DNA of 64,000 bases. Source: an uncultured Acidobacteriota bacterium. GTDB lineage: Bacteria > Acidobacteriota > Thermoanaerobaculia > Multivoradales > SZUA-115. The translations under genes were made by a program, and so were the position numbers. The notes under the pieces were generated by a model. That model ran no database searches. It saw only the letters and a program-made list of their open reading frames with translations, and was not told the origin of the DNA. Positions 7,646-56,174 of the stretch are shown piece by piece. The stretch lies in the NCBI GenBank assembly GCA_963805975.1, contig CAWDVR010000001.1, forward strand, positions 758,106 through 822,105, read 5' to 3'. Position 1 is the stretch's first letter, and the number at the start of each line of letters is the position of its first letter.

Positions 7646-10600
7646 ATGCCGCTACGCCGCACGGGTTTCCCGCGCTCCGGCCTTGCTCCGCTCGCCGCCG
7701 CCGTACTGCTCGCCTTCGCCTTCGCCTTCGCCTCCGCCGAGCCCGCCCGTGCCCAGACGTGCTGGGCGTACGTGAACACCCCGGCCTCGGCGCCGATCAG
7801 TTGCGTGGATCAGGGCGACCTCTCGCCCGGCTGCTTCTGGAATGGCGACTGCCACGACGATCTCGACCTTTCGGACTGCTGCACGACCATCCCCGGCGGT
7901 CCGCAGAGCGTCCTCCAGATGCACTCCGCCTGGCATAGCTGCTTCGGCGCCATCGGCGACTCGGACGGCGACAACCCGCCCATGCGGGGCAACCGTTGGT
8001 ACGCCTTCCATCGCCAGATCGAGCACGACTACAACCTGTGGCGCGAGAGCGGTAACTTCTGCAACCCCACGGCCGGCAGCCCCCAGGGGTGCAAGATCGA
8101 GTCGGTCGACTGGTGCCCGAATATGCTGCTGCCGTACGGCTTCGACTGCGACCTCGCGGCCGGCGGCACCGGCTGCGGCACCCAGGGCTTCGTCGCCGAC
8201 AACTCGGCCCAGGACTGTAACCCCACCCTCGGCAGCACCAATCCCTGCCGGCCCAACAACGCCGCCTGCCCCGGCTGCCAGGCCTTCCCGCAATGCCTGT
8301 TCCTGGGCGGCGCCGGCCCGGCGGCGTGCCCGCTGGCACCCAGCGCCTCCTGCTCGGGCACCGGCGTCAACCTGCCCCACACCGAGCTGGCGGACTTTCC
8401 GGACGTCGAGGAGCTGACCACGCTCCTGGACTCGAGCTTCCACGGCAACATGCACGGCGCCGTGGGCACCGCCGGCCCCTGCGGCGACATCAACAGCTCC
8501 GGCTGCTCGGTGCGCGATCCCATGTTCTGGCGCCTGCACAAGGCGATCGACGACGTGGTGCGCGCCTGGCAGGACATCAACGCCACCGACGTGATGGTGG
8601 TGGTCGACCGCTCGGGCAGCATGAACGAGCTGGACTCGACGGGCGACAGCAAGCTCACCGCCGCGCTCGAGGCCGCCGACCTCTTCGCCGACCTGATGGA
8701 GGACGCCCGCGCCGACGGCCAGACCAACCGCATCGGCGTCGTCTCCTACGCCTCGAACGCCGGCGACGCGGCGCGCAACCTGGCGCCGATCGCGGCCGGG
8801 CCCACGCTGCGCGATCCCGGCCAGCCGTTCCCCAATGTGCTCGCCGCGATCGGCGGCGCGGGCGGCGGCGGCTGCACGGGCATCGGCAGCGGCATCCAGG
8901 CGGCGGCCGACCAGATCTGCCCCGGGGGCGACTGCGGCGCCGTGCCCGATCCGCCGCCGGCCGGCACCAACCGCCGCAAGTCCATCCTGCTGCTGACCGA
9001 CGGCATCGAGAACGTGCCGCCGTGCCTGCAATCGGCCGGTCCCGCCGGCGCGACCTGCGGTGGCCAGTGCTTCGGCGCCACGCTCGATGCGACCCGGCTC
9101 TACGACACCCAGGTCTGCGCCGTGGGCTTCGGCGACGCCGGCTCGCTCAACGGCGATCTCCTGACCCTCTTCGCCGAGCGCCAGGGCGGCATCTACATGC
9201 AGAACCCGGCCCTCGACCCGGACGGCGAGTGGATCGATCTCAAGGACTTCTTCGCCAAGTGCTTCGGCCAGTTGACCGACGAGTTCCTGGGGCTCGATCC
9301 CAAGGGCATCCTCGCCCCCGGCCAGGCGGCCAGCGAGGCCATCGAGTACACCTCCTGCGGCGACGGCAAGCTGACCTTCGTCGGCGGCTGGAAGACGGCT
9401 GTCGACCGCGGCGAGCTGCGCCTGCTGATCCACGCCCCGAACGGCGACCTGGTGCGACCGGGCGCCGGCGTGGAGACCTCGACCCAGGCCACCTGGGACT
9501 TCTCCCGGCTGCGCCTGCCCTACGGCACGGCCTCGACCGGCCTCTGGCAGGCCCACCTCGTGCGCCCCCACCGGGCCTTCGTCAACGGTTTCACGAGCGA
9601 CGCCTTCGCCGACCCCAAAGCCGGAGTCGAGCTGGTGCGGCGCGAGATCCAGCGCCTGTGCCCGACGGGATGCAAGCGGGTGCTCTACTTCGAGGACCAG
9701 ACGCTCGGCACCTCGGTCTACGACAAGGCGATCCAGGTCGAGCTCGGCACGCGCCTCCTGGGCACAGTCTCCCGCACCAACCGGCCCGACGAGCTGGCGG
9801 GCCTGCTGCGCCGCGAGTGGGACCTGCTGGTCTACGCCCACCAGAAGGGCGAGGCGCCGGAGCCCTACGACGGCCCCCTTGCCGAGCGGATCTGCGGCGG
9901 CCAGCGCGCCATCCTGACCGACACCCGCGGCCAGGCCGCGGCCTCGATCCTCAAGTGCGCGGGCGCGGCCTACGACGAGGGCCGCAACCACAGGCTGCTG
10001 GCGGTGGACGGTGAGCTGCTCGCCGGCCAGCACAAGCTCCACGACCCCGGCCATGCGATCTGGAGCTATGGCCTGCGGCCCGCGGGGAGCACCGCCCAAG
10101 CGCGGCTGGACGGCCGGACCCACGGCATCGTGGCTGCGGTCCAGCGCGGGGCCGAGCAGCGCTGGTTCGTGGACGTGCTGGTGCGGGGCCTGAACAAGCT
10201 CGAGGCCCACAAGCCGGTGTCGCACTTCGAGACCGGCAGCGATCTGCTGCCGAGCGTGCGGATCTCGCCCTTCACCGTCACCGCCGGCGGCTTCGACCGC
10301 GTCCAGGCCAGGGTGGAGATCGAGCGCCCGCTCCTCGGCCTCGGCACGCTGCTGGCCCGCACCGGTCTCGCCAAGGAGGTGCGGATCGGCGAGGAGCGGC
10401 TCGACCCGCGCGCCGCCACGCTCCTGGCGCTCGAGCAGGCGCGCCGCGGGCCGGTGATCCCCACCACCACCGAGACCTACCCGCTGTTCGACGACGGTAC
10501 GAACGGCGACCTGGTGGCGGGCAACAACTACTTCTCGGCCCAGCTTCCGCGCGCCGCCTCGGCGGACGGCATGTACCGCTATCGCTACATCCTGGACCTC

Positions 10601-11242
10601 GAGAAGAACGGCTGCACCACGCGGCGCGAGCTGACGCAGTCGGTGTTCGTCGAGGTGGGTGTCGACCCCACGGCGAGCGGCGTACAGGCCACGCCGCACC
10701 AGCCCGGGGCCGCCGGGGGCTACGACGTGACGCTCACTCCCCGCGACCGGCTGGGCAACCTCTGGGGCCCCGGCCGTCCCGGCGCCATCCAGTGCCGCGC
10801 CGACGACGGCTGCCGCTGCGACGCAGGGAAGGTGACCGACCGCGGCGACGGCTCCTACGTGATCCCGGTGGCGGTCAAGGCGAACGCCCGGCAGTGCCGC
10901 ATCGACGCCTTCGGCACGGTCTTCGACCTCGCCTGGAACCGCCGGCCGGCCTCCTGCGCGGCGCTCCTCAAATCGCTCGACAATCCGCGCATCGACGGCG
11001 CACTGCGCAACAAGCTTCGCTTCAAGGTCGAGGCCGCCTGCGAGCAATGGCACGCCGTCGAGGGCGACTGGAGCCTGGCCACCACCCAGGCCAGCTCGAC
11101 CCTGGCCGAGGTGCTACACGAGATCGAGTCCCACGCCGGCGCCGACCTGCCGGCAGCCGACGTCGCGGAGCTGAAGCGACGAGTGCAGGAGCTGGCGAAA
11201 GAGGGCGGGCTCGAGGTGGGGGAGGCGCATCCGCATCACTGA
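7646..11242 (+). CDS. secreted multidomain protein: type-3 copper (tyrosinase-like) domain + von Willebrand factor A domain + ~700 aa uncharacterised C-terminal region
   Basis: Signal peptide MPLRRTGF...ASAEPARA. CuA-like histidines (MHSAWHSCFG ... WYAFHRQ) and a CuB-like motif (FHGNMHGAVG ... DPMFWRLHKAIDD). VWA with a MIDAS motif (VVVDRSGSMN ... LLLTDGIEN). Confidence 0.7.
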   Translation: MPLRRTGFPRSGLAPLAAAVLLAFAFAFASAEPARAQTCWAYVNTPASAPISCVDQGDLSPGCFWNGDCHDDLDLSDCCTTIPGGPQSVLQMHSAWHSCFGAIGDSDGDNPPMRGNRWYAFHRQIEHDYNLWRESGNFCNPTAGSPQGCKIESVDWCPNMLLPYGFDCDLAAGGTGCGTQGFVADNSAQDCNPTLGSTNPCRPNNAACPGCQAFPQCLFLGGAGPAACPLAPSASCSGTGVNLPHTELADFPDVEELTTLLDSSFHGNMHGAVGTAGPCGDINSSGCSVRDPMFWRLHKAIDDVVRAWQDINATDVMVVVDRSGSMNELDSTGDSKLTAALEAADLFADLMEDARADGQTNRIGVVSYASNAGDAARNLAPIAAGPTLRDPGQPFPNVLAAIGGAGGGGCTGIGSGIQAAADQICPGGDCGAVPDPPPAGTNRRKSILLLTDGIENVPPCLQSAGPAGATCGGQCFGATLDATRLYDTQVCAVGFGDAGSLNGDLLTLFAERQGGIYMQNPALDPDGEWIDLKDFFAKCFGQLTDEFLGLDPKGILAPGQAASEAIEYTSCGDGKLTFVGGWKTAVDRGELRLLIHAPNGDLVRPGAGVETSTQATWDFSRLRLPYGTASTGLWQAHLVRPHRAFVNGFTSDAFADPKAGVELVRREIQRLCPTGCKRVLYFEDQTLGTSVYDKAIQVELGTRLLGTVSRTNRPDELAGLLRREWDLLVYAHQKGEAPEPYDGPLAERICGGQRAILTDTRGQAAASILKCAGAAYDEGRNHRLLAVDGELLAGQHKLHDPGHAIWSYGLRPAGSTAQARLDGRTHGIVAAVQRGAEQRWFVDVLVRGLNKLEAHKPVSHFETGSDLLPSVRISPFTVTAGGFDRVQARVEIERPLLGLGTLLARTGLAKEVRIGEERLDPRAATLLALEQARRGPVIPTTTETYPLFDDGTNGDLVAGNNYFSAQLPRAASADGMYRYRYILDLEKNGCTTRRELTQSVFVEVGVDPTASGVQATPHQPGAAGGYDVTLTPRDRLGNLWGPGRPGAIQCRADDGCRCDAGKVTDRGDGSYVIPVAVKANARQCRIDAFGTVFDLAWNRRPASCAALLKSLDNPRIDGALRNKLRFKVEAACEQWHAVEGDWSLATTQASSTLAEVLHEIESHAGADLPAADVAELKRRVQELAKEGGLEVGEAHPHH

Positions 11243-11279: not shown

Positions 11280-12558
11280 TCAGGTTCCGTCCACCACGAG
11301 GCTCCAGGCGGAGAGGTCGCCGGTCTCGAAGCTGTCCTCGAAGATCGATGAGGGCGTGGCGTAGGCCACGAAGGCGCCGGTGCCCCACTCGATCTGGTTG
11401 TCGGCAGGCGGGGTGAGGGTGGCGGCGAAGGAGACGTCGCCCGCTTCGTTGATCGCCACTCCGCCGCCGAAGACCGGGCTCGAATCGTTCTGGTCGACGC
11501 GCGCCGTGCCGAGGTCGGTGGGCAGGAGGTCGTGCTCGCGGACCACGCGCGCGGAGCATGGTGCCGTCGCCCACGAAGACGGCGCGCAGGCCACTCTCGT
11601 CGAAAGCGCGGAAGGCGACCAGACCGGTCTCGTTGACGGCGGGCGCGAAGAACTCGAGCTCCGAGAGGTCGGGCCCGGACTCGACCGCGATGGTGACGGT
11701 GGTCACTCCGTCGGACAGGAACACGCCACGCCCGCCGGCGACCAGGGTGGCGAGGAAGACCACGCGGCCGTCGTTGGTGAGCGCCACGCTGTTGTCGAAA
11801 CGCGCGTAGGGCGAGGCGGCGTTGGAATCGACGTCCTCGGCGATCAGCACCGAGCTGCCGTTGGGTTCGAAGATGCGGATCTGGTCCGGCCGGCTCTCTG
11901 CGATCTCCCCCGCGGCGCCGAGCCGCACTTTGCCGGCGATCTGCCGCGCGTCGTTGAAGGCGGGGGTGAAGAGGAAGGAGTAGGGGCTCCCCACCACGAC
12001 GCCGGCTTCGGCGGCGTGGATCGGCACGGTGGAGGTGCCGTCGTAGGAGACCCAGGTCTGGCCCGAGCCCGAGAAACCGGCCCGGTAGCCCACCTGCCCG
12101 AGGTCGTTGATCGAGGGCGACCCCCATGAGGAAGCACCCAGGGGCAGGTTGGTGAGGAAGCCGGCGGTGTCGGTCTTCGAGTCGTAGGTGTAGAGGCCTT
12201 GGGGGCTCGAGAACGCCTCGTCCCACACCGCGACGCCGGCGTTGTTCAGGCCCACGGAGAGCACGAAGGCCTCCTCGTCGCTCTGGTAGACGATCTCCCC
12301 CTGGGCCTGGCCTCCGAACCACACCCCCTGGCCGGTCGAGCTTGGCAGCACCTCCAGGTCGAAGGCCATCTGTCCCAGGTCGTTCAGCCGTGGCGTGGTG
12401 TTCGAGAAGAAGGCGCTCCCCGGCAGGTTGAAGGCGCCGCTGAAGTTGGCTCTCGCCTGGAGCTCGAAGGTTTCGTAGGTCGGGACCTCGGCCGTGGCGC
12501 CAGAGGCTAGCGCCGTGGCGAGGAGAAAGCTGGAGGCAGATCGCAGGGTGGGTTTCAG
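11280..12558 (-). pseudogene. FG-GAP/beta-propeller secreted protein paralog, frameshifted (candidate pseudogene or sequencing error)
   Basis: Two overlapping minus-strand ORFs (11236..12369 and 11280..11594) rejoin after a 1-nt shift near 11570 in a CGCGCGCG run. The signal-peptide-like N-terminus (LKPTLRSASSFLLATALASG) lacks an ATG; only a CTG with an AAGGAG 6 nt upstream is available. The C-terminus ends IFEDSFETGDLSAWSLVVDGT, as in the other motif-bearing proteins. Confidence 0.5.
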
Positions 12559-32966: not shown

Positions 32967-33650
32967 ATGGCATCCCGTCGGTTGCTGGTGATCGGTGCTT
33001 GGTCCCTCAGTGCAGTGATGGTTCTGGGTCTCGTGGCGCTCCCGGTCAGCGCCCAGGAGACGACGGTGAAGAACGACTCGGTGAGCGACTTCGAGCAGGT
33101 CGCCATCCAGGCCGGCTTTGCCGCCAACGAGCGCGCCGCCGTCTGGCTGACCTCGCCCTGCGACGGCAAGCTGGTGGCCGTGCAGATCCTCTGGCGCTCC
33201 CTTTTCGGCGGCACCGGCGACACCCTCGGCGAGTCGATCCTCATCCAGGAGGCGGGCACGTTCCCGACTCCCGGTACGACGCTCTCCACCCTTTCCGGGC
33301 CGCTCCTCACGGACGGATTCCTGAACGAGTACCGCTTCCTGGACCAGGGCGGCACCGTGCCGCTCTCCGTGCCGCTGGCCCTGGACCAGGTCTTCGTGGT
33401 CTCGTTCCGCTTCCTCACAGCGACGCCCGGCCTCGGCCCCAGCCTGGTCACCGACGTCGACGGCTGCCAGGCGGGCAAGAACGCCATCTTCGCCATCCCG
33501 CCTTCGACCTGGTTCTCGGCCTGCTCACTCGGCGTGTCCGGGGACTTCGTGATGCGGGCCGTGGTGGACTGCAGCGTGGTGGAGGAGGAGATCTTCTCCG
33601 ACGACTTCGAGACCGGCGACACGTCGCTCTGGACGGTCACCGTTCCTTAG
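32967..33650 (+). CDS. secreted hypothetical protein (227 aa) ending in the shared C-terminal tail
   Basis: GGGAGG then ATG; signal peptide. The C-terminus ends ...EEEIFSDDFETGDTSLWTVTVP. Confidence 0.55.
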   Translation: MASRRLLVIGAWSLSAVMVLGLVALPVSAQETTVKNDSVSDFEQVAIQAGFAANERAAVWLTSPCDGKLVAVQILWRSLFGGTGDTLGESILIQEAGTFPTPGTTLSTLSGPLLTDGFLNEYRFLDQGGTVPLSVPLALDQVFVVSFRFLTATPGLGPSLVTDVDGCQAGKNAIFAIPPSTWFSACSLGVSGDFVMRAVVDCSVVEEEIFSDDFETGDTSLWTVTVP

Positions 33651-33761: not shown

Positions 33762-35240
33762 ATGGCTCGTTCTCCCGCGTTCCGACGCGTTCTGCTCTTC
33801 GCCGGCCTCGCGCTAGCCTCTTCGATCTGGGCGGCAGCCAGTGCGGCGGAGCCCGCTCGCTCGCTCCAGCTCTCTCCCTGCCACCTCGACGGCCTCGACC
33901 AGGAGGTGCGCTGCGGCGTGCTCGAGGTGGCGGAGGATCGCGCGGCGGCCGGCGCGGGGCGTCGGCTTTCCATCCACGTCGCCGTGATGCCGGCGCGGCG
34001 GCGCGACGCCGAGGCCGATCCGCTCTTTTTGCTGGCCGGCGGGCCGGGGCAGGGAGCGCAGACCTTCGCGCCCCTCCTCGAGCCCTTCTTTCGCGAGGTG
34101 CTGCGCCGGCGGGACATCGTGCTCGTGGACCAGCGCGGCACCGGGGACTCGAGCCCGCTCGCCTGCGCGTCTCCGGCCGACGAGCTGGCGGGCCTGGCGG
34201 GCGGCGCGATCCTCGAGACCGATGTCGCCGCCTGCCGCGCCAAGCTCGATGCGGACGTGCGGTTCTACGCCTCCGAGCCCGCCATGCGCGACCTCGACCA
34301 GGTCCGCGCGGCCCTGGGCTACGAGCGCATCAATCTCTGGGGCGGCTCCTACGGCACCCGCGCCGCCCTGGTCTATGCGCGCCTCTTTCCCAGCCGGGTG
34401 CGCACCGTCGTGCTCGATGGCGCCGCGCCCTTCGAGCTGCGCTTCCCGCTCTCCATGGCGGCAGACAGCCAGCGCGCGCTCGACCGCCTGCTCGCGGCCT
34501 GCGCGGCCGAGGCCGCGTGCCGCGCCGCCTACCCGCGGCTCAGCCCGGACCTCGACGAGCTGCTGGCCCACCTGGCCAAGAGACCGGCACGGGTCTCGGT
34601 CCGCCATCCGCGAACCGGGATCGCGCAGACCGTCGAGATCGGCCGCGACGCCTTCGCCGCCGGCCTGCGCGGCGGCCTCTATTCGCCCGGCCAGCAGAGC
34701 CTTCTCCCGCTGGTCATCGAACGGGCGACGCAGGGGGACTTCGAGCCCTGGGCCACGATGCAGCTCGCGACGGCGGCCTGGTCGCGGGACACCATGGCGC
34801 TCGGCGTCACGCTCTCCGTGCTCTGCACCGAGGATCTCTCCCGCGTCCGCGAGGCGGAGATCGAGAGCGCCAGCGCGCGCTCGTTCCTCGGCACGCTGGA
34901 GATGGAGGGCTGGCGCCAGTGGTGCGGGGCTTGGCCGGCGGGAGAGCTCGATCCCCGGCTCCTCGAGGCGCCGCCCGTGGCCGTGCCGGCGCTGGTCCTC
35001 TCGGGCGACCTCGACCCGGTGACGCCGCCGCGCTGGGGCGAGGTGATGGCCCGGCACTTCACTCCGCACCGGCACCTGGTGGTGCCCGGAGCGGGCCACA
35101 ACGTTTCCTTTTCCGGCTGCCTGCCGGAGCTGATCGCGGAGTTCATCGCGCGCGGCAGCGCGGACGGCCTGGATGCCGCCTGCGTCGAAGCCGTCCGCCG
35201 CCCGCCGTTCGTGCTCGACAGCGCCGGCACCGCGCCCTGA
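33762..35240 (+). CDS. secreted alpha/beta hydrolase (TAP/proline-iminopeptidase-like)
   Basis: Signal peptide; LFLLAGGPGQG oxyanion region; nucleophile GGSYG; 492 aa. Confidence 0.7.
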   Translation: MARSPAFRRVLLFAGLALASSIWAAASAAEPARSLQLSPCHLDGLDQEVRCGVLEVAEDRAAAGAGRRLSIHVAVMPARRRDAEADPLFLLAGGPGQGAQTFAPLLEPFFREVLRRRDIVLVDQRGTGDSSPLACASPADELAGLAGGAILETDVAACRAKLDADVRFYASEPAMRDLDQVRAALGYERINLWGGSYGTRAALVYARLFPSRVRTVVLDGAAPFELRFPLSMAADSQRALDRLLAACAAEAACRAAYPRLSPDLDELLAHLAKRPARVSVRHPRTGIAQTVEIGRDAFAAGLRGGLYSPGQQSLLPLVIERATQGDFEPWATMQLATAAWSRDTMALGVTLSVLCTEDLSRVREAEIESASARSFLGTLEMEGWRQWCGAWPAGELDPRLLEAPPVAVPALVLSGDLDPVTPPRWGEVMARHFTPHRHLVVPGAGHNVSFSGCLPELIAEFIARGSADGLDAACVEAVRRPPFVLDSAGTAP

Positions 35241-51643: not shown

Positions 51644-52915
51644 TCAAGGGAAAGTCTCGGTCCAGGCCGAGGTGTCGCCGCTCTCGAAGCCGTCGGCGAA
51701 GATCCGGTTGCCGAAGAACAGCACCGCGCCGGGGGTGCCGGGGTGCTCGGTGGTGTAGGGCGCCCCGGCGAGCACGCCGGCGGCTCCGAGAGCGACGGTG
51801 GTGCCCAACTGGTCGTAGTCGAGCGGCTCGCTCCGCTTCAACCTGTGCACCAGATGCCAGCTCGAGGCGTGGGGATTGCCGGTGCGCAGGTAGCGGTACA
51901 CCGCGCCGGCATTGACCCCGCCGTCATCCTCGCCGATCGCACCCGCCACCAGCTCCACGGACCCGGTCGGGCTCGCCGCCAGGTCGACGCTCCAGCCGAA
52001 CCAGTCGTGGTCCGTCGCCTCGGCCGGCCGCAGCAGCGCCTGCAGCTCGAACTCTAGAAACGGGAGGGTCACGACCTCGTAGACGTAGCCGCCGCCCGCA
52101 TCGGTGAGCGCTCCCGGCGCAGTGGTTCGGTCCAGGTACGGCGAACCGACGGCCAGGAGGTCGCCGTCGAGCGCCACCGCCCAGCCGAAGTCGGCGCCGG
52201 TCTGACTGGAGGCCGGAGAGACGATCTCCTGCAGCTCGATCCAGCTCCCCGCCCGGGCATAGACGTGGACGGCACCGTTGTCGCCCCGCCCCGGTGCCCC
52301 GGCGACGATCACCGGGCCGTCGATCGCCAGGCCCCGGCCCAACTGGTCGGCGAAGCCGCCCACGAAGGTCTTTGCCAGCATCCACGAGCCGGGGCTCTGC
52401 TGCTCGTAGATCCGCACCCGGCCGCTGCCGCCGAAGAAGTCCGGCTGCCCGATCGCCAGCGTCGTGCCGTCCATGACCAGCGCCCACACCCAGCCGCCGT
52501 CGATCCCCGATACCTCTACCTGGCCGCTGTCGGCGTGCCGGAGCGAGGTGGTGGCTCCTCCGGAGTCGAGCATCGCGTAGAGGAGATAGAAGCCGGCCGT
52601 CACCGGCAGGTATTGCGGAGCTGTCGGCAGGATGGGTGGATGAGAGACCCAGGAGGTGGCCCCCGGCCCGAGCGAGAAGCGCTGCGCGGCCCCCGCCTGC
52701 GGCGCGCCGACGATGGCGATCGAGCTGGCGTCTGGCGTGTCCGCGAGGGCGAGCGTGGCTCCGAAAGCGGGACCCGGCGGCAGCTCGGTGAGATAGTCCC
52801 AGAGCAGTGTCTGGTCCTCCGTGCGAGTGGGTACGGTGCCGGCGTGAGCCTCCGGCATCGTCGACACGACAAGAGCGAGCGAGAAGGTCAAAGCCTGGAA
52901 GCTAGGGTTGCGCAT
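51644..52915 (-). CDS. secreted FG-GAP/integrin-alpha-like beta-propeller protein with the conserved C-terminal tail
   Basis: Signal peptide; repeated ...VAGAPGRGDNGAVHVY... FG-GAP-like units. Ends RIFADGFESGDTSAWTETFP. Confidence 0.65.
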   Translation of the reverse strand: MRNPSFQALTFSLALVVSTMPEAHAGTVPTRTEDQTLLWDYLTELPPGPAFGATLALADTPDASSIAIVGAPQAGAAQRFSLGPGATSWVSHPPILPTAPQYLPVTAGFYLLYAMLDSGGATTSLRHADSGQVEVSGIDGGWVWALVMDGTTLAIGQPDFFGGSGRVRIYEQQSPGSWMLAKTFVGGFADQLGRGLAIDGPVIVAGAPGRGDNGAVHVYARAGSWIELQEIVSPASSQTGADFGWAVALDGDLLAVGSPYLDRTTAPGALTDAGGGYVYEVVTLPFLEFELQALLRPAEATDHDWFGWSVDLAASPTGSVELVAGAIGEDDGGVNAGAVYRYLRTGNPHASSWHLVHRLKRSEPLDYDQLGTTVALGAAGVLAGAPYTTEHPGTPGAVLFFGNRIFADGFESGDTSAWTETFP

Positions 52916-52993
52916 GGCGTGGGGTTCCTCCTCTCCTCCCTGCGCCGGGAAGAGGTCGAAAGGGCCACGCCTGCTTTCGCCCGCCCTACGCCA

Positions 52994-54259
52994 CTAGGGC
53001 TCGACAGCGCTCCAGGCCGAAGTGTCCCCGCTCTCGAAGCCGTCGGCGAAGATCCGCGAGCCGAAGAACAGCACGACCCCGGAGCTGTTCTCACTGTTGA
53101 CCACGCCATTGGGGGCGCCGGCCAGAACGCCGCGCTCGGTGATCGCGACGGTCGCCCCCAGGCGCTCGAACGGATGGGGATCGCTGCTGATCATCCGGGT
53201 CACCTCCACCCAGCTCGACGATTCACCCTCGCCCGTTCGAGCGTACTGATGGATCGCGCCCGCGTTGGTGGCTCCTTCCCCGTCCTCTCCAGGAGCCCCG
53301 GCCACCAGCCGGGCACTACCGGCCGCGGGCCCAAAGAGATCCACGCTGGTTCCAAAGAAGTCATGATTCGTGGCTCCCGCAGGACGCAGCAGGGCCTGCA
53401 GCTCGAACAGCAGAAACGGGAACGTCACCACCTCGTAGACGTAGACGCCGCCCACGTCGATCAGCGTTCCCGGCGCGGTGGTGCGGTCCAGCCACGGCGA
53501 GCCCACGGCCAGGATGTCGCCGGCGAGCGCCCCGCCGAACTCGGCCTCGACCTGGCTCGCGGCGGGGGAGTCGATCACCTGGAGCTCGATCCAGCTCGTG
53601 GCCCGCGCATAGACATGGACGGCGCCGTTGTCCCCCCGGCCCGGCGCGCCGGCGACCACGGTCTGACCGTCGATTGCGAGCGCCGCGCCGAGCCGATCGC
53701 CGAACCCGCCGCCGAAAGTCTTCGCCAGCACCCAGTTCCCGGTGCCGTGATCTTCGTAGATCCGCACTCGGCCGCTGCCACCGAAGAAGGCCGGCTGACC
53801 GATCGCCAGGATGGTGCCGCGCTTGACCAGGGAGAGCACCGGGCCGCCGTCGATCGTCGGGATCACCACCGAGCCCTCGGTGCGCCGGATGGTCGAGGTC
53901 GTCCCTCCCGGGTCGAGGGCGGCGTAGATCGCGAAGCCCTCGACCGACACCGGCACGAGCTGAGAGGTCGTCGGGTCGATCGAAGTATGTCCGTGCCAGA
54001 AAGTCTCGTCGGGCCTGAGCTCGAACAGCCGCGCCGCGCCGGCCGTCGAGCCGACGATCCCGAAGGTATAGCCCGCCTCAGTCTCGGCCATGTCGAGCGT
54101 GGCGCCGAAACCGGCGTTGGATGGCAGAAGGGGATCGAGGTCCCAGAACAGGGTCTCGTCCTGAGTAAGGGTCCCGGCGGCCCCGGCACCGAAGGCAAGT
54201 GCCCACAGGCTGGTGGTGATCGATGTGAGAGCGAAAATCCGCAGGCGGTGGTTGCGCAT
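52994..54259 (-). CDS. secreted FG-GAP/integrin-alpha-like beta-propeller protein, tandem paralog
   Basis: Collinear with the 51644..52915 protein. Ends RIFADGFESGDTSAWSAVEP. The 5' leader is conserved with that of its paralog. Confidence 0.65.
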   Translation of the reverse strand: MRNHRLRIFALTSITTSLWALAFGAGAAGTLTQDETLFWDLDPLLPSNAGFGATLDMAETEAGYTFGIVGSTAGAARLFELRPDETFWHGHTSIDPTTSQLVPVSVEGFAIYAALDPGGTTSTIRRTEGSVVIPTIDGGPVLSLVKRGTILAIGQPAFFGGSGRVRIYEDHGTGNWVLAKTFGGGFGDRLGAALAIDGQTVVAGAPGRGDNGAVHVYARATSWIELQVIDSPAASQVEAEFGGALAGDILAVGSPWLDRTTAPGTLIDVGGVYVYEVVTFPFLLFELQALLRPAGATNHDFFGTSVDLFGPAAGSARLVAGAPGEDGEGATNAGAIHQYARTGEGESSSWVEVTRMISSDPHPFERLGATVAITERGVLAGAPNGVVNSENSSGVVLFFGSRIFADGFESGDTSAWSAVEP

Positions 54260-54347: not shown

Positions 54348-54734
54348 TCATCGCGCCGGATCGACCCAGACGAGACCCTCCACCTGCTCGAAATGCCGGT
54401 CGAAGGAGATTAGATCGGCGCCGGTCTCCATCGCCTGGGCGGCGATCCAGATGTCGTTCGAAGGAATGGGGCAGCCCTTGCGGCGGAGCGCGTGGGTGAT
54501 TCGGCTGTAGCGATCAGCAGTGGTGCGCGTCACCGGCAAGAGGCTCACGCGTGGAAGCGCCAGGAAGCGATCGAGCTCGAGCAGGTTCTGTTCCAGCCGA
54601 CTCCCGCCGCGAAATCCAGCCAGTACTTCACCCACCACCACGGTCGAGAAGATCAGCGCCTTGGCGCCCATGACCAGCGCGCTCACTTTGGCATGCCCAT
54701 GGCCCAGAGCCGAGTACGCGTTGGTGTCGAGCAT
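54348..54734 (-). CDS. vapC: PIN-domain toxin VapC
   Basis: 128 aa; MLDTNAYSAL ... acidic PIN residues. ATG lies 5 nt after the antitoxin stop. Confidence 0.75.
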   Translation of the reverse strand: MLDTNAYSALGHGHAKVSALVMGAKALIFSTVVVGEVLAGFRGGSRLEQNLLELDRFLALPRVSLLPVTRTTADRYSRITHALRRKGCPIPSNDIWIAAQAMETGADLISFDRHFEQVEGLVWVDPAR

Positions 54735-54739
54735 GACTC

Positions 54740-55006
54740 TCACTTCCAGAGCTCCTCGTCGATCTCGTCGAAGATCTTGGTGGCCTCCTGGAACTCTTTC
54801 AAGTCCTGGTCGCTCCAGCTCCCGATGAACCAATCGAGCGAGTTGCCGATCACGTCCTCGTCGGGCTTGGGGGCGGCGAGCCCCGCTCCTCGCCGGAGCA
54901 ACTTGAGAACGGCCTGATTCAGCGACAGGCCCTCGTCCTTCGCCAGGCTTCGGACCTTGCGGGCGAGGTCGTCGTCGAGGCCGCGGATCGTGAGCTGGTC
55001 AATCAT
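54740..55006 (-). CDS. vapB: VapB-type antitoxin
   Basis: 88 aa; MIDQLTIRGLDDDLARKVRSLAKDEGLSLNQAVLKLL (DNA-binding N-terminus) and an acidic C-terminus. Confidence 0.6.
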   Translation of the reverse strand: MIDQLTIRGLDDDLARKVRSLAKDEGLSLNQAVLKLLRRGAGLAAPKPDEDVIGNSLDWFIGSWSDQDLKEFQEATKIFDEIDEELWK

Positions 55007-55085
55007 AGGCACCTCCCGCGAGTCAGGTATGACTCGCTCCGAGTCATTATCGTGACTCGGCGGTGCAGGGTCAAGGGTGGCAGCG

Positions 55086-56174
55086 CTACCGCACCCGCTT
55101 GCGCCGGTTCTTGATGTAGTCGGCGAGCAGGAACTCGCCCAGGTTGTAGGGCGAGGCAAAGTAGGCGCGGCCGCGGTTGATGCGGGTCAGCTTGTCCACG
55201 AAGTCGGTCAGCAGCTCGTCCGTCGCCAGCATGAAAGTGGTGATGACCACGTTCTGCCGGCGGCAGAGGTCGGCCTCCTCGAGAGTGAGGTTGACGATCC
55301 TCAGGTCGAGGCCGAAGGGGTTCTTGTACACCTGGCCGTTCTCGGTGATGGCCGAGGGCTTGCCGTCGGTGATCAGGAAGATCTGCTTGTTGGGCTGCTT
55401 CTGGCGGGCGAGCAGGCCGCGGGCGAGCTGCAACGCCTCGCGCGTGTTGGTGTGGTACGGCCCGGCCTGGATGTAGGGCAGGTCCGAGAGGTTCACCCGC
55501 TCGGCCCGGTCGCCGAAGAGGATCACCGACAGGTGGTCCTTGGCGTACTTGGTGGTGATCAGCTCGGTCAGGGCGAGGGCCACCTTCTTGGCCGGCGTGA
55601 TGCGGTCCTCGCCGTAGAGGATCATCGAATGGCTGACGTCGATCGCCACCACCGTGGCGCACGAGGTCAGATGCTCGGTCTCGTGGACCTCCAGGTCCTG
55701 CTCGGCCAGCTCCAGGCCGCCGTGGGTGCGCTTCATCGCGTTCTGGAGCGAGCGTGCGGCGTCCAGGTGGTGGAGGTCGTCGCCGAACTCGAAGGCGCGG
55801 GTCTCCGGCAGCCGTTCGACGCCGTCGCCGGGCGCCTGGATGGCGTGGTAGCCCGGCCCGGCCCGCTCCAGGCTGCCGAACACCTCCTCGAAGGCCGAGC
55901 GCCGCACCCGCCGCTCGCCCGAGGCGGTGAGCTGGGAGCCACCCTGGCCGTCGCGCTGGATGAGCTGCTGCTCCTCGAGGCTGGCAAAGAAGGCCTCGAG
56001 ATCCACCGACTCGTCGATGTAGCCCTCCTTCTGCAGGTAGCGCATCCACTCCATGGCCTCGTCCACATCGCCGCCGGTGGCGAGCAGGAGCTGGTTGAAG
56101 AGGCGCAGCAGATCGAGCCCGGCAAGAAGGGCCTGGAGGAGAGCGGGATCGAGATAGGCGTAACGGTGGCGCAT
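55086..56174 (-). CDS. VWA-domain protein (CoxE/ChlD-C-terminal-like)
   Basis: MIDAS-containing VWA (VVAIDVSHSM ... FLITDGKPS). Operonic with the AAA+ ATPase. Confidence 0.75.
   Translation of the reverse strand: MRHRYAYLDPALLQALLAGLDLLRLFNQLLLATGGDVDEAMEWMRYLQKEGYIDESVDLEAFFASLEEQQLIQRDGQGGSQLTASGERRVRRSAFEEVFGSLERAGPGYHAIQAPGDGVERLPETRAFEFGDDLHHLDAARSLQNAMKRTHGGLELAEQDLEVHETEHLTSCATVVAIDVSHSMILYGEDRITPAKKVALALTELITTKYAKDHLSVILFGDRAERVNLSDLPYIQAGPYHTNTREALQLARGLLARQKQPNKQIFLITDGKPSAITENGQVYKNPFGLDLRIVNLTLEEADLCRRQNVVITTFMLATDELLTDFVDKLTRINRGRAYFASPYNLGEFLLADYIKNRRKRVR

Follow-up and report, generated by a model that had tools for sequence, protein, structure and literature searches.

C-terminal tags have repeatedly led to new machineries of secretion or anchoring, among them sortase, exosortase, rhombosortase, myxosortase and the type IX secretion system (T9SS). 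The LPXTG, PEP-CTERM, IPTL-CTERM, MYXO-CTERM and GlyGly-CTERM signals all carry a transmembrane (TM) helix and an Arg/Lys cluster. The type A C-terminal domain (CTD) of T9SS cargo (Por_Secre_tail, TIGR04183), found in Bacteroidota, is soluble, has no membrane helix and is a folded domain of about 70-100 residues. Dockerin ends of the GC type (NF041540) are likewise C-terminal and not membrane-embedded, and are thought to dock cargo non-covalently; a dockerin module has about 60-70 residues and duplicated Ca2+-binding loops. In eukaryotes, the PTS1 signal -SKL and KDEL are C-terminal signals of 3-4 residues read by a soluble receptor. For tripartite C-terminal sorting signals, Haft has set out eight attributes (bioRxiv 10.1101/2023.06.07.544157).

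Here we describe a 19-residue tail that ends four predicted exported proteins in a 64,000-nucleotide stretch of DNA (the window) from an uncultured Acidobacteriota bacterium (assembly GCA_963805975.1, contig CAWDVR010000001.1, positions 758,106 to 822,105). The tail, called the tag below, is real and strongly non-random, and is apparently undescribed. It holds a fixed C-terminal position, is under selection at the level of the protein, is carried by many unrelated secreted families, stands in place of other signals in homologues, and ends in a uniform way within genomes. The tag probably marks its cargo for a surface-sorting or secretion machinery.

Four proteins in the window share a C-terminal tail

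An initial annotation of the window reported nearly the same tail at the ends of four open reading frames (ORFs), and the ORFs and tails are as it quoted them. A six-frame search with the pattern F.[DN].FE.GD.S.W finds exactly four sites where 0 are expected by chance, at 51662-51700(-), 53012-53050(-), 11304-11342(-) and 33594-33632(+), with the Trp 5, 5, 7 and 5 residues from the stop, respectively. The equivalent DNA pattern matches four times in the window, which has a G+C content of 71%, and 0 times in 100 dinucleotide-preserving shuffles. The tag copies and their carriers are as follows.

51647..51703, minus strand: tag copy 1, IFADGFESGDTSAWTETFP; stop codon at 51644-51646
51644..52915, minus strand: carrier 1, a 423-aa secreted FG-GAP_2 beta-propeller with a signal peptide
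52997..53053, minus strand: tag copy 2, IFADGFESGDTSAWSAVEP; stop codon at 52994-52996
52994..54259, minus strand: carrier 2, a 421-aa FG-GAP_2 protein, tandem paralogue of carrier 1
33591..33647, plus strand: tag copy 3, IFSDDFETGDTSLWTVTVP; stop codon at 33648-33650
32967..33650, plus strand: carrier 3, 227 aa, consisting of a signal peptide, an unmodelled beta-sandwich domain of ~175-190 aa and the tag
11283..11345, minus strand: tag copy 4, a variant, IFEDSFETGDLSAWSLVVDGT; stop codon at 11280-11282
11280..12558, minus strand: carrier 4, an NxxGxxAF-repeat (MXAN_5453-like, DUF7453) protein over two reading frames
11555..11565, minus strand: approximate site of a one-base frameshift in carrier 4, a CGCGCGCG run

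Signal-peptide-like N-termini are present on all four carriers, in agreement with the earlier view that each is exported. As tandem paralogues with 57% identity, the two FG-GAP genes amount to a single independent case in the window. The 227-aa protein fell into no Pfam or NCBIfam family when the four carriers were scanned. Carrier 4 had been taken for a frameshifted FG-GAP paralogue; the frameshift is borne out, but the FG-GAP paralogy is not. Its two frames align to successive stretches of NF045523 (MXAN_5453 family MYXO-CTERM-anchored protein), and the gene also matches TIGR05002 (choice-of-anchor NxxGxxAF repeat) and DUF7453. Because this gene encodes an NxxGxxAF "choice-of-anchor" repeat protein, the window holds three unrelated architectures and not the two first proposed. 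No ATG, GTG or TTG lies in frame with its signal-peptide-like N-terminus (LKPTLRSASSFLLATALASGATA, at ~12558(-)); the gene may be a pseudogene, may be misassembled or may use a non-canonical start.

The tag is a 19-residue unit at the extreme C-terminus

A scan of one genome per species with the back-translated motif DGFE[ST]GDT[ST]AW, in which a stop codon was not required, located the tag at no fewer than 118 loci in at least 67 assemblies, figures that are lower bounds for tags per genome and for taxon range. Positional counts are taken from the 126 copies that have a stop in view among the matches listed. The stop falls exactly 5 residues after the Trp in 77 of these, within 8 residues in 110, and at the Trp itself in 9, so that the enrichment at C-termini for which the initial annotation proposed a search is found in these matches. 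Similarly, a profile of the four window tails searched against 5.8 billion proteins gave 950 matches, and in 103 of the 120 listed the motif starts exactly 18 residues from the C-terminus. Those 120 are short fragments whose upstream sequence is unrelated.

At the positions that the search pattern leaves free, I, L or V stands at -3 in 111 of 124 copies and Phe at -2 in 116 of 124, and the Trp is followed by Ser (63/77), any residue, Thr or Val (61/77), Val (53/77) and a C-terminal Pro (68/77). Conservation does not reach further upstream than -3 and has an abrupt edge there and at the stop codon. The unit is therefore a 19-mer, [ILV]-F-x-D-G-F-E-[ST]-G-D-T-[ST]-A-W-S-x-[TV]-V-P-COOH, running from the hydrophobic residue before the first Phe to the C-terminal Pro, and longer than the 14 residues originally given. 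F, D, G, F, E, G, D and W are invariant or at least 90% conserved across 56 tails. The residues after the Trp number 0-8 and are mostly polar; the tail contains D, E and D but neither K nor R, and its net charge of about -4 makes it acidic. Relaxed forms (DLSGW, DAGEW, SLAGW and others) occur on ten more ORFs neighbouring tagged loci, in every case at the C-terminus.

No Pfam (2025) or NCBIfam (June 2026) model covers the tag in searches with the four carriers, the four isolated tails or the 56 tails, and the motif was not found in full-text literature searches, including searches for Thermoanaerobaculia plus secretion. Many jelly-roll, carbohydrate-binding module (CBM) and LamG-type domains begin like F-E-x-G-x-x-x-W, and the tag could be an ordinary domain edge, that is, the truncated first beta-hairpin of such a domain. 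The sole NCBIfam match among the 56 tails points this way, with one tail aligned to positions 2-22 of the 155-residue NTTRR-F1 model (NF033675; 12 bits, E = 0.17), as do a few copies after which the sequence continues. Copy L103 (JAXDKS010000041.1) is embedded in an RHS/YD-like protein that runs on for 547 residues, in L028 a Pro-rich linker and a 152-aa Cys-rich domain come next, and L024 directly follows the signal peptide. The NTTRR-F1 score is far under the cut-off of 70 bits, however, the other 55 tails match nothing, Pfam is empty too, and a linker, not a continuing domain, follows the motif in L028. Random truncation would not yield a stop exactly at +5 with an S-x-T-V-P end in 77 of 126 copies, and the motif is kept in at least 67 assemblies and on 56 Pfam families. 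We regard a domain edge, a possibility also raised in the initial annotation, as very improbable, and a truncated domain remnant is rejected on the score of 12 against 70 bits and on the stop within 8 residues in 110 of 126 copies.

Selection acts on the peptide

The 126 genomic copies include 110 distinct 33-mers, every four-fold degenerate site varies, and both Ser positions are encoded by TCN as well as AGY. This free codon variation indicates that selection acts on the protein and not on the DNA. It also bears on the possibility, raised in the initial annotation, that the four tails reflect recent recombination of one gene 3' end; the tag would then be a mobile or recombining 3' segment copied by recent gene conversion. 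The adjacent FG-GAP genes would fit such a cassette, since their tag DNA is nearly identical, with 2 synonymous differences. Across all four window copies, however, the tags differ at synonymous and some non-synonymous sites, conservation breaks off at the stop codon and, upstream, 3 residues ahead of the Asp, and the tag occurs alike in genomes of 70% G+C and in a Kangiella metagenome-assembled genome (MAG), where the locus has the 44% G+C in keeping with that genus. The number of distinct 33-mers, the two Ser codon types and the synonymous differences among window copies rule out a recently spread DNA cassette, and a DNA-level origin of the shared tail is effectively refuted.

The tag takes the place of known sorting signals in homologues

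Among 1.84 billion representative proteins, an exhaustive phmmer search identified 432 relatives of the 227-aa body (residues ~16-205) at E <= 1e-3. These diverge right after a common "...IRAVVDC" boundary, beyond which they end in the tag, PEP-CTERM, IPTL-CTERM, a T9SS CTD, dockerin-like ends or very short "[ILV]F[AS]NGF[ED]" tails. By NCBIfam, homologues of the 227-aa protein score 23.2 and 19.3 bits for PEP-CTERM (cut-off 16), 21.0 bits for IPTL-CTERM (cut-off 20.5), and 34.4 and 30.6 bits for the T9SS type A signal (cut-off 23). The closest named relative, a protein of 69% identity from a Thermoanaerobaculia MAG, is tagged. The 227-aa body thus behaves as a "choice-of-anchor" domain, found with PEP-CTERM, IPTL-CTERM, T9SS CTD and dockerin-like ends as well as with the tag.

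The other two architectures give a similar picture. All close FG-GAP relatives (37-70% identity) keep the tag, and distant ones end in IPTL-CTERM (27.9 bits), a T9SS CTD (37.4 bits) or dockerin-like ends; the dockerin-like matches (GC-type, NF041540) in homologues lie below the cut-off, at 16 and 24 bits against 29. For carrier 4, the families are named by NCBIfam for interchangeable anchors ("MYXO-CTERM-anchored", "choice-of-anchor"). As judged from sequence, homologues of each of the three window architectures have known sorting signals where the window proteins have the tag. This gives comparative support to the initial proposal of a C-terminal sorting, processing or docking tag.

The very short tails resemble the tag in part. 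Among 270 homologues (relatives of the 227-aa and FG-GAP window proteins), the core "[ILV]F.[DNS]GF[ED]" without the Trp half occurs 13 times, 10 of them no more than 8 residues from the C-terminus. Tails matching "[ILV]F[AS][ND]GF[ED]" and followed by 0-8 residues were seen on P0136, P0149, P0155, P0156, P0189, P0245, P0345, P0349 and P0376, of which P0345 comes from a Rhodanobacteraceae MAG. Such "[ILV]-F-x-[DN]-G-F-[DE]" tails agree with the tag in their first half and in lying at the extreme C-terminus but lack its S-G-D-T-S-A-W-S-x-T-V-P half, and their kinship to it is drawn from the shared core only. No description of them was found in the libraries or literature searched. Their occurrence suggests that the first half of the tag may be an older, broader C-terminal element.

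Cargo proteins and their genomes

The 72 complete carriers include 56 Pfam families, among them BNR, LVIVD, FG-GAP, subtilase, trypsin-like, M14 and M28 peptidases, GSDH, beta-helix, MtrC/MtrF-like multihaem cytochromes, PAD_porph and LamG. By blastp, the largest cluster of mutually similar carriers comprises 8 of 77. Signal peptides, as called by a crude heuristic, are found on 59 of 77 carriers versus 133 of 371 neighbouring ORFs (odds ratio 5.9, p = 6e-11). The carrier genes are scattered and have no recurring neighbour, as expected for a one-to-many system.

Nearly all tag-bearing assemblies are Thermoanaerobaculia or other Acidobacteriota MAGs, and the labels among the listed loci are Thermoanaerobaculia, Thermoanaerobaculales, Holophagae, Acidobacteriota, Ca. 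Multivoradales and Ca. Sulfomarinibacteraceae. Outliers comprise two MAGs of Bryobacterales and one of Gemmatimonadota, one bin each labelled Polyangiaceae, "Deltaproteobacteria" and Acidimicrobiia, and the Kangiella MAG. A tblastn search of plasmids with the consensus gave no match.

The end of the tag follows the genome. When tails are classed as ending at +5 with SxTVP or at or near the Trp, 81 of the 85 same-assembly pairs agree in class; across 5000 shuffles the average is 53 and the highest value 70, and none reaches 81. In JAIOJS01, JAAELT01, JAUIDB01 and JAUIJL01 the tags end at the Trp or at most 3 residues beyond it, and in some other assemblies always with SxTVP. Unrelated proteins of one genome therefore follow a common rule. 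This uniformity is suggestive of one machinery reading all tags of a genome, although shared ancestry contributes to the signal.

A genome-specific end form would also suit a quality-control or turnover signal, recognised in the periplasm by a tail-specific protease or stress sensor of the PDZ type and leading to degradation or maturation rather than to a destination. The C-termini of outer-membrane proteins are read by DegS, and substrates by Prc/CtpA. The fixed distance to the free C-terminus, the conserved terminal V-P and a tail that is predicted to be flexible and accessible are in line with such a role. PDZ ligands use about 3-5 terminal residues, however, whereas 19 are conserved here, and the DGFESGDTSAW core persists even in internal tags and in those that stop at the Trp. 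No PDZ protease recurs among the neighbours of tagged genes, and the exchange with PEP-CTERM, IPTL-CTERM, T9SS and MYXO-CTERM signals argues for a signal of destination. Turnover is in our view a quite unlikely function of the tag.

Predicted structure of the tail

In AlphaFold2 models the 227-aa body is a beta-sandwich (pLDDT ~97 over residues 30-203) and the FG-GAP body of carrier 1 is a propeller (pLDDT ~95). The last ~20 residues in both models have a pLDDT of 45-68 (45-60 for carrier 1) with no stable secondary structure and no contact to the body, a low confidence that perhaps stems partly from few informative alignment rows over the tail. The structure prediction that the initial annotation had called for thus leaves the tail undocked, and the tail is predicted not to be packed against the protein body. 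For the 227-aa model, Foldseek matches were CBM- or jelly-roll-like (E >= 1e-3) and too weak to put a name to the fold of this body. Sequence searches of the PDB with the consensus peptide and with the 56-sequence profile returned chance-level matches only (HasA and SWD1, E ~0.2).

These models bear on whether the tag acts within its own protein, as a stabilising cap (a beta-hairpin or Ca2+-binding loop) or as a Pro-capped stub that blocks carboxypeptidases, with no partner needed in trans. Only 2-5 residues separate the last beta-strand of the body from the tail, there are three acidic residues, and the weak PDB look-alikes, in HasA and the WD40 protein SWD1, are internal beta-hairpins, all of which would be in keeping with a cap. 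A Pro end in 68 of 77 copies and the many secreted peptidases among the cargo would likewise be in keeping with a protective stub. A packing element would, however, be expected to co-vary with the fold, and here one 19-mer sits on 56 Pfam families of unrelated folds; AlphaFold docks it on neither body. Protection from exopeptidases leaves the near-invariant DGFESGDTSAW unexplained, homologues substitute true sorting signals instead of simply lacking the tag, and the uniformity of tail ends within genomes points to a shared factor. An intramolecular role is therefore unlikely, though we would still give it some weight.

Comparison with described C-terminal signals

The initial annotation judged the tail to be unlike PEP-CTERM, LPXTG, GlyGly-CTERM and the T9SS CTD, and this holds: the tag has no TM helix and no basic cluster, and it gives no match to TIGR04183. 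It shares six of the eight attributes listed by Haft (1, 2, 3, 6, 7 and 8) and lacks attributes 4 and 5. Those shared are the extreme C-terminal position (110 of 126 copies within 8 residues of the stop, and all four window copies 5-7 residues from it), multiple occurrences per genome (4 copies in 64 kb, and up to 6 per assembly among the matches listed, a lower bound), a signature motif (eight positions at 90% or above in 56 tails), a signal peptide on most carriers by the crude heuristic (59/77 versus 133/371), pairs of carriers that share only the signal (56 Pfam families in 72 carriers), and homologues without the signal or with another one (PEP-CTERM, IPTL-CTERM and T9SS CTD above their cut-offs). 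Those lacking are the hydrophobic TM segment after the motif, which is seen in a single exception (L052), and the terminal basic cluster, in place of which the tag ends S-x-T-V-P. The tag is outside the tripartite class and, having neither TM helix nor basic cluster, is not processable by an intramembrane sortase-like enzyme in the usual way.

The exception, L052 (CAWDGW010000008.1, minus strand), carries the full tag, then a degenerate repeat of the tag start (ALFGDG), a hydrophobic helix and a basic end, RLKER, after the TM helix (MLLVLMVAGAAVMRLKER). It is a hybrid of the tag with a tripartite-style anchor.

Functionally, by analogy, the tag would be closest to the T9SS CTD or to a dockerin, reduced to a short anchorless peptide. 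Like the T9SS CTD it is soluble, without a membrane helix, and would serve Sec-exported cargo with one machinery for many proteins. The range of T9SS cargo also resembles that of the tag (peptidases, glycosidase-like propellers, adhesin repeats and even a PAD_porph enzyme), and the T9SS CTD occupies the tag position in homologues of two window proteins. Unlike this domain, the tag has 19 residues, is predicted to be unstructured and is found on Acidobacteriota carriers. No carrier and none of the 56 tails matches TIGR04183, and no T9SS components are present among the annotated window genes or the neighbours of tagged genes. With no model match, a length of only 19 aa and no predicted structure, the tag does not belong to the T9SS CTD family. 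GC-type dockerin ends share the tag position in 227-aa and FG-GAP homologues, by matches below the cut-off, but the dockerin module is longer, is built on Ca2+-binding loops and has no sequence similarity to the tag. As with PTS1 and KDEL, a short peptide is held at a fixed distance from the free carboxyl end; the tag differs from these in its 19 conserved residues, of which the last five are dispensable in some genomes, and in being bacterial and not a signal for eukaryotic compartments.

A candidate sorting system

The architecture of the tag differs from all known classes, and by every comparative criterion tested it is sorting-like; the sorting function itself would follow by analogy. We think it rather likely that a separate protein reads the tail as a linear C-terminal sorting tag, by which Sec-exported cargo is taken to outer-membrane export or surface retention. 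Recognition by another protein, with export or surface retention as the outcome, is what we infer from the comparisons above. Sec would export the cargo and the N-terminal signal peptide would be removed, leaving a flexible, acidic, aromatic-studded 19-mer to project from the folded protein. Each genome would have a single dedicated receptor or processing system, in the periplasm or outer membrane, that binds the tag; this system would move the cargo across the outer membrane or hold it at the cell surface, a single machinery thus serving many cargo proteins. The tag may be cleaved, covalently transferred or simply bound.

Several points weigh against a sorting tag. No neighbour family recurs at the 118 tagged loci listed, either by blastp clustering of 448 ORFs or by Pfam on 112 neighbours (174 families). 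Pfam on the 20 other window genes gave no secretion or sortase-like gene, consistent with the earlier remark that no cognate enzyme is evident in the window. To our knowledge, no established prokaryotic sorting signal has such a short, soluble, acidic form, so the argument proceeds by analogy. The internal and N-terminal copies described above, although rare, indicate that a free C-terminus is not strictly required, and the genomes in which the tag ends right at the Trp indicate that the xTVP end is dispensable. The heuristic nature of the signal-peptide calls, the lower-bound character of the genome scan and the few alignment rows behind the modelled tails also belong here. The loci of the outlier taxa (Bryobacterales, Kangiella, Polyangiaceae, Gemmatimonadota) share no gene. 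PEP-CTERM-like ends were absent from ORFs neighbouring tagged genes, which carries little weight as the loci were chosen for the tag.

More tentatively, and with somewhat less than even confidence, the tag may belong to a new Sec-dependent pathway by which Thermoanaerobaculia export proteins through the outer membrane or attach them to the surface. The 19-residue anchorless acidic tail would be its signal, read by a receptor or a sortase-like component, and would be part of a wider "[ILV]-F-x-[DN]-G-F-[DE]" tail family reaching other phyla, for example Xanthomonadales-type Gammaproteobacteria and Gemmatimonadota. Because the signal has no TM helix or basic cluster and is far shorter than the T9SS CTD, its machinery is probably not homologous to any known one.

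A sorting tag of this kind would mark much of the predicted exported proteome of an acidobacterial class that is abundant and almost uncultured. Its cargo of peptidases, glycan-acting propellers and MtrC-like multihaem cytochromes bears on polymer degradation and on extracellular electron transfer in sediments and soils. A hidden Markov model (HMM) of the tag would improve annotation by predicting surface-exposed or secreted proteins, and could serve as a query for finding the machinery by phylogenetic profiling.

Neighbouring genes and a further C-terminal module

Another recurring C-terminal module, "...[FY]Q.W[YF]RDP...[ST]NA[LV]....P-COOH", was seen on many distant FG-GAP_2 proteins, some from Planctomycetota MAGs (P0359, P0377, P0387, P0399, P0412, P0421 and about 10 others). 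It has no NCBIfam model and may be another undescribed C-terminal element.

In the window, the frameshifted tagged gene adjoins an untagged 1198-aa secreted protein with a tyrosinase central-domain match and a VWA domain (7646-11242(+)). Directly downstream of the tagged 227-aa gene lies a secreted S33-type alpha/beta hydrolase with a TAP-like C-terminal domain (33762-35240(+)); this link is probably coincidental, because only 3 of 112 neighbours of tagged genes elsewhere are of this kind. Beside the FG-GAP pair, two small overlapping ORFs at 54348-54833(-) and 54740-55159(-) are, by eye, VapBC-like (PIN-type toxin/antitoxin) candidates.

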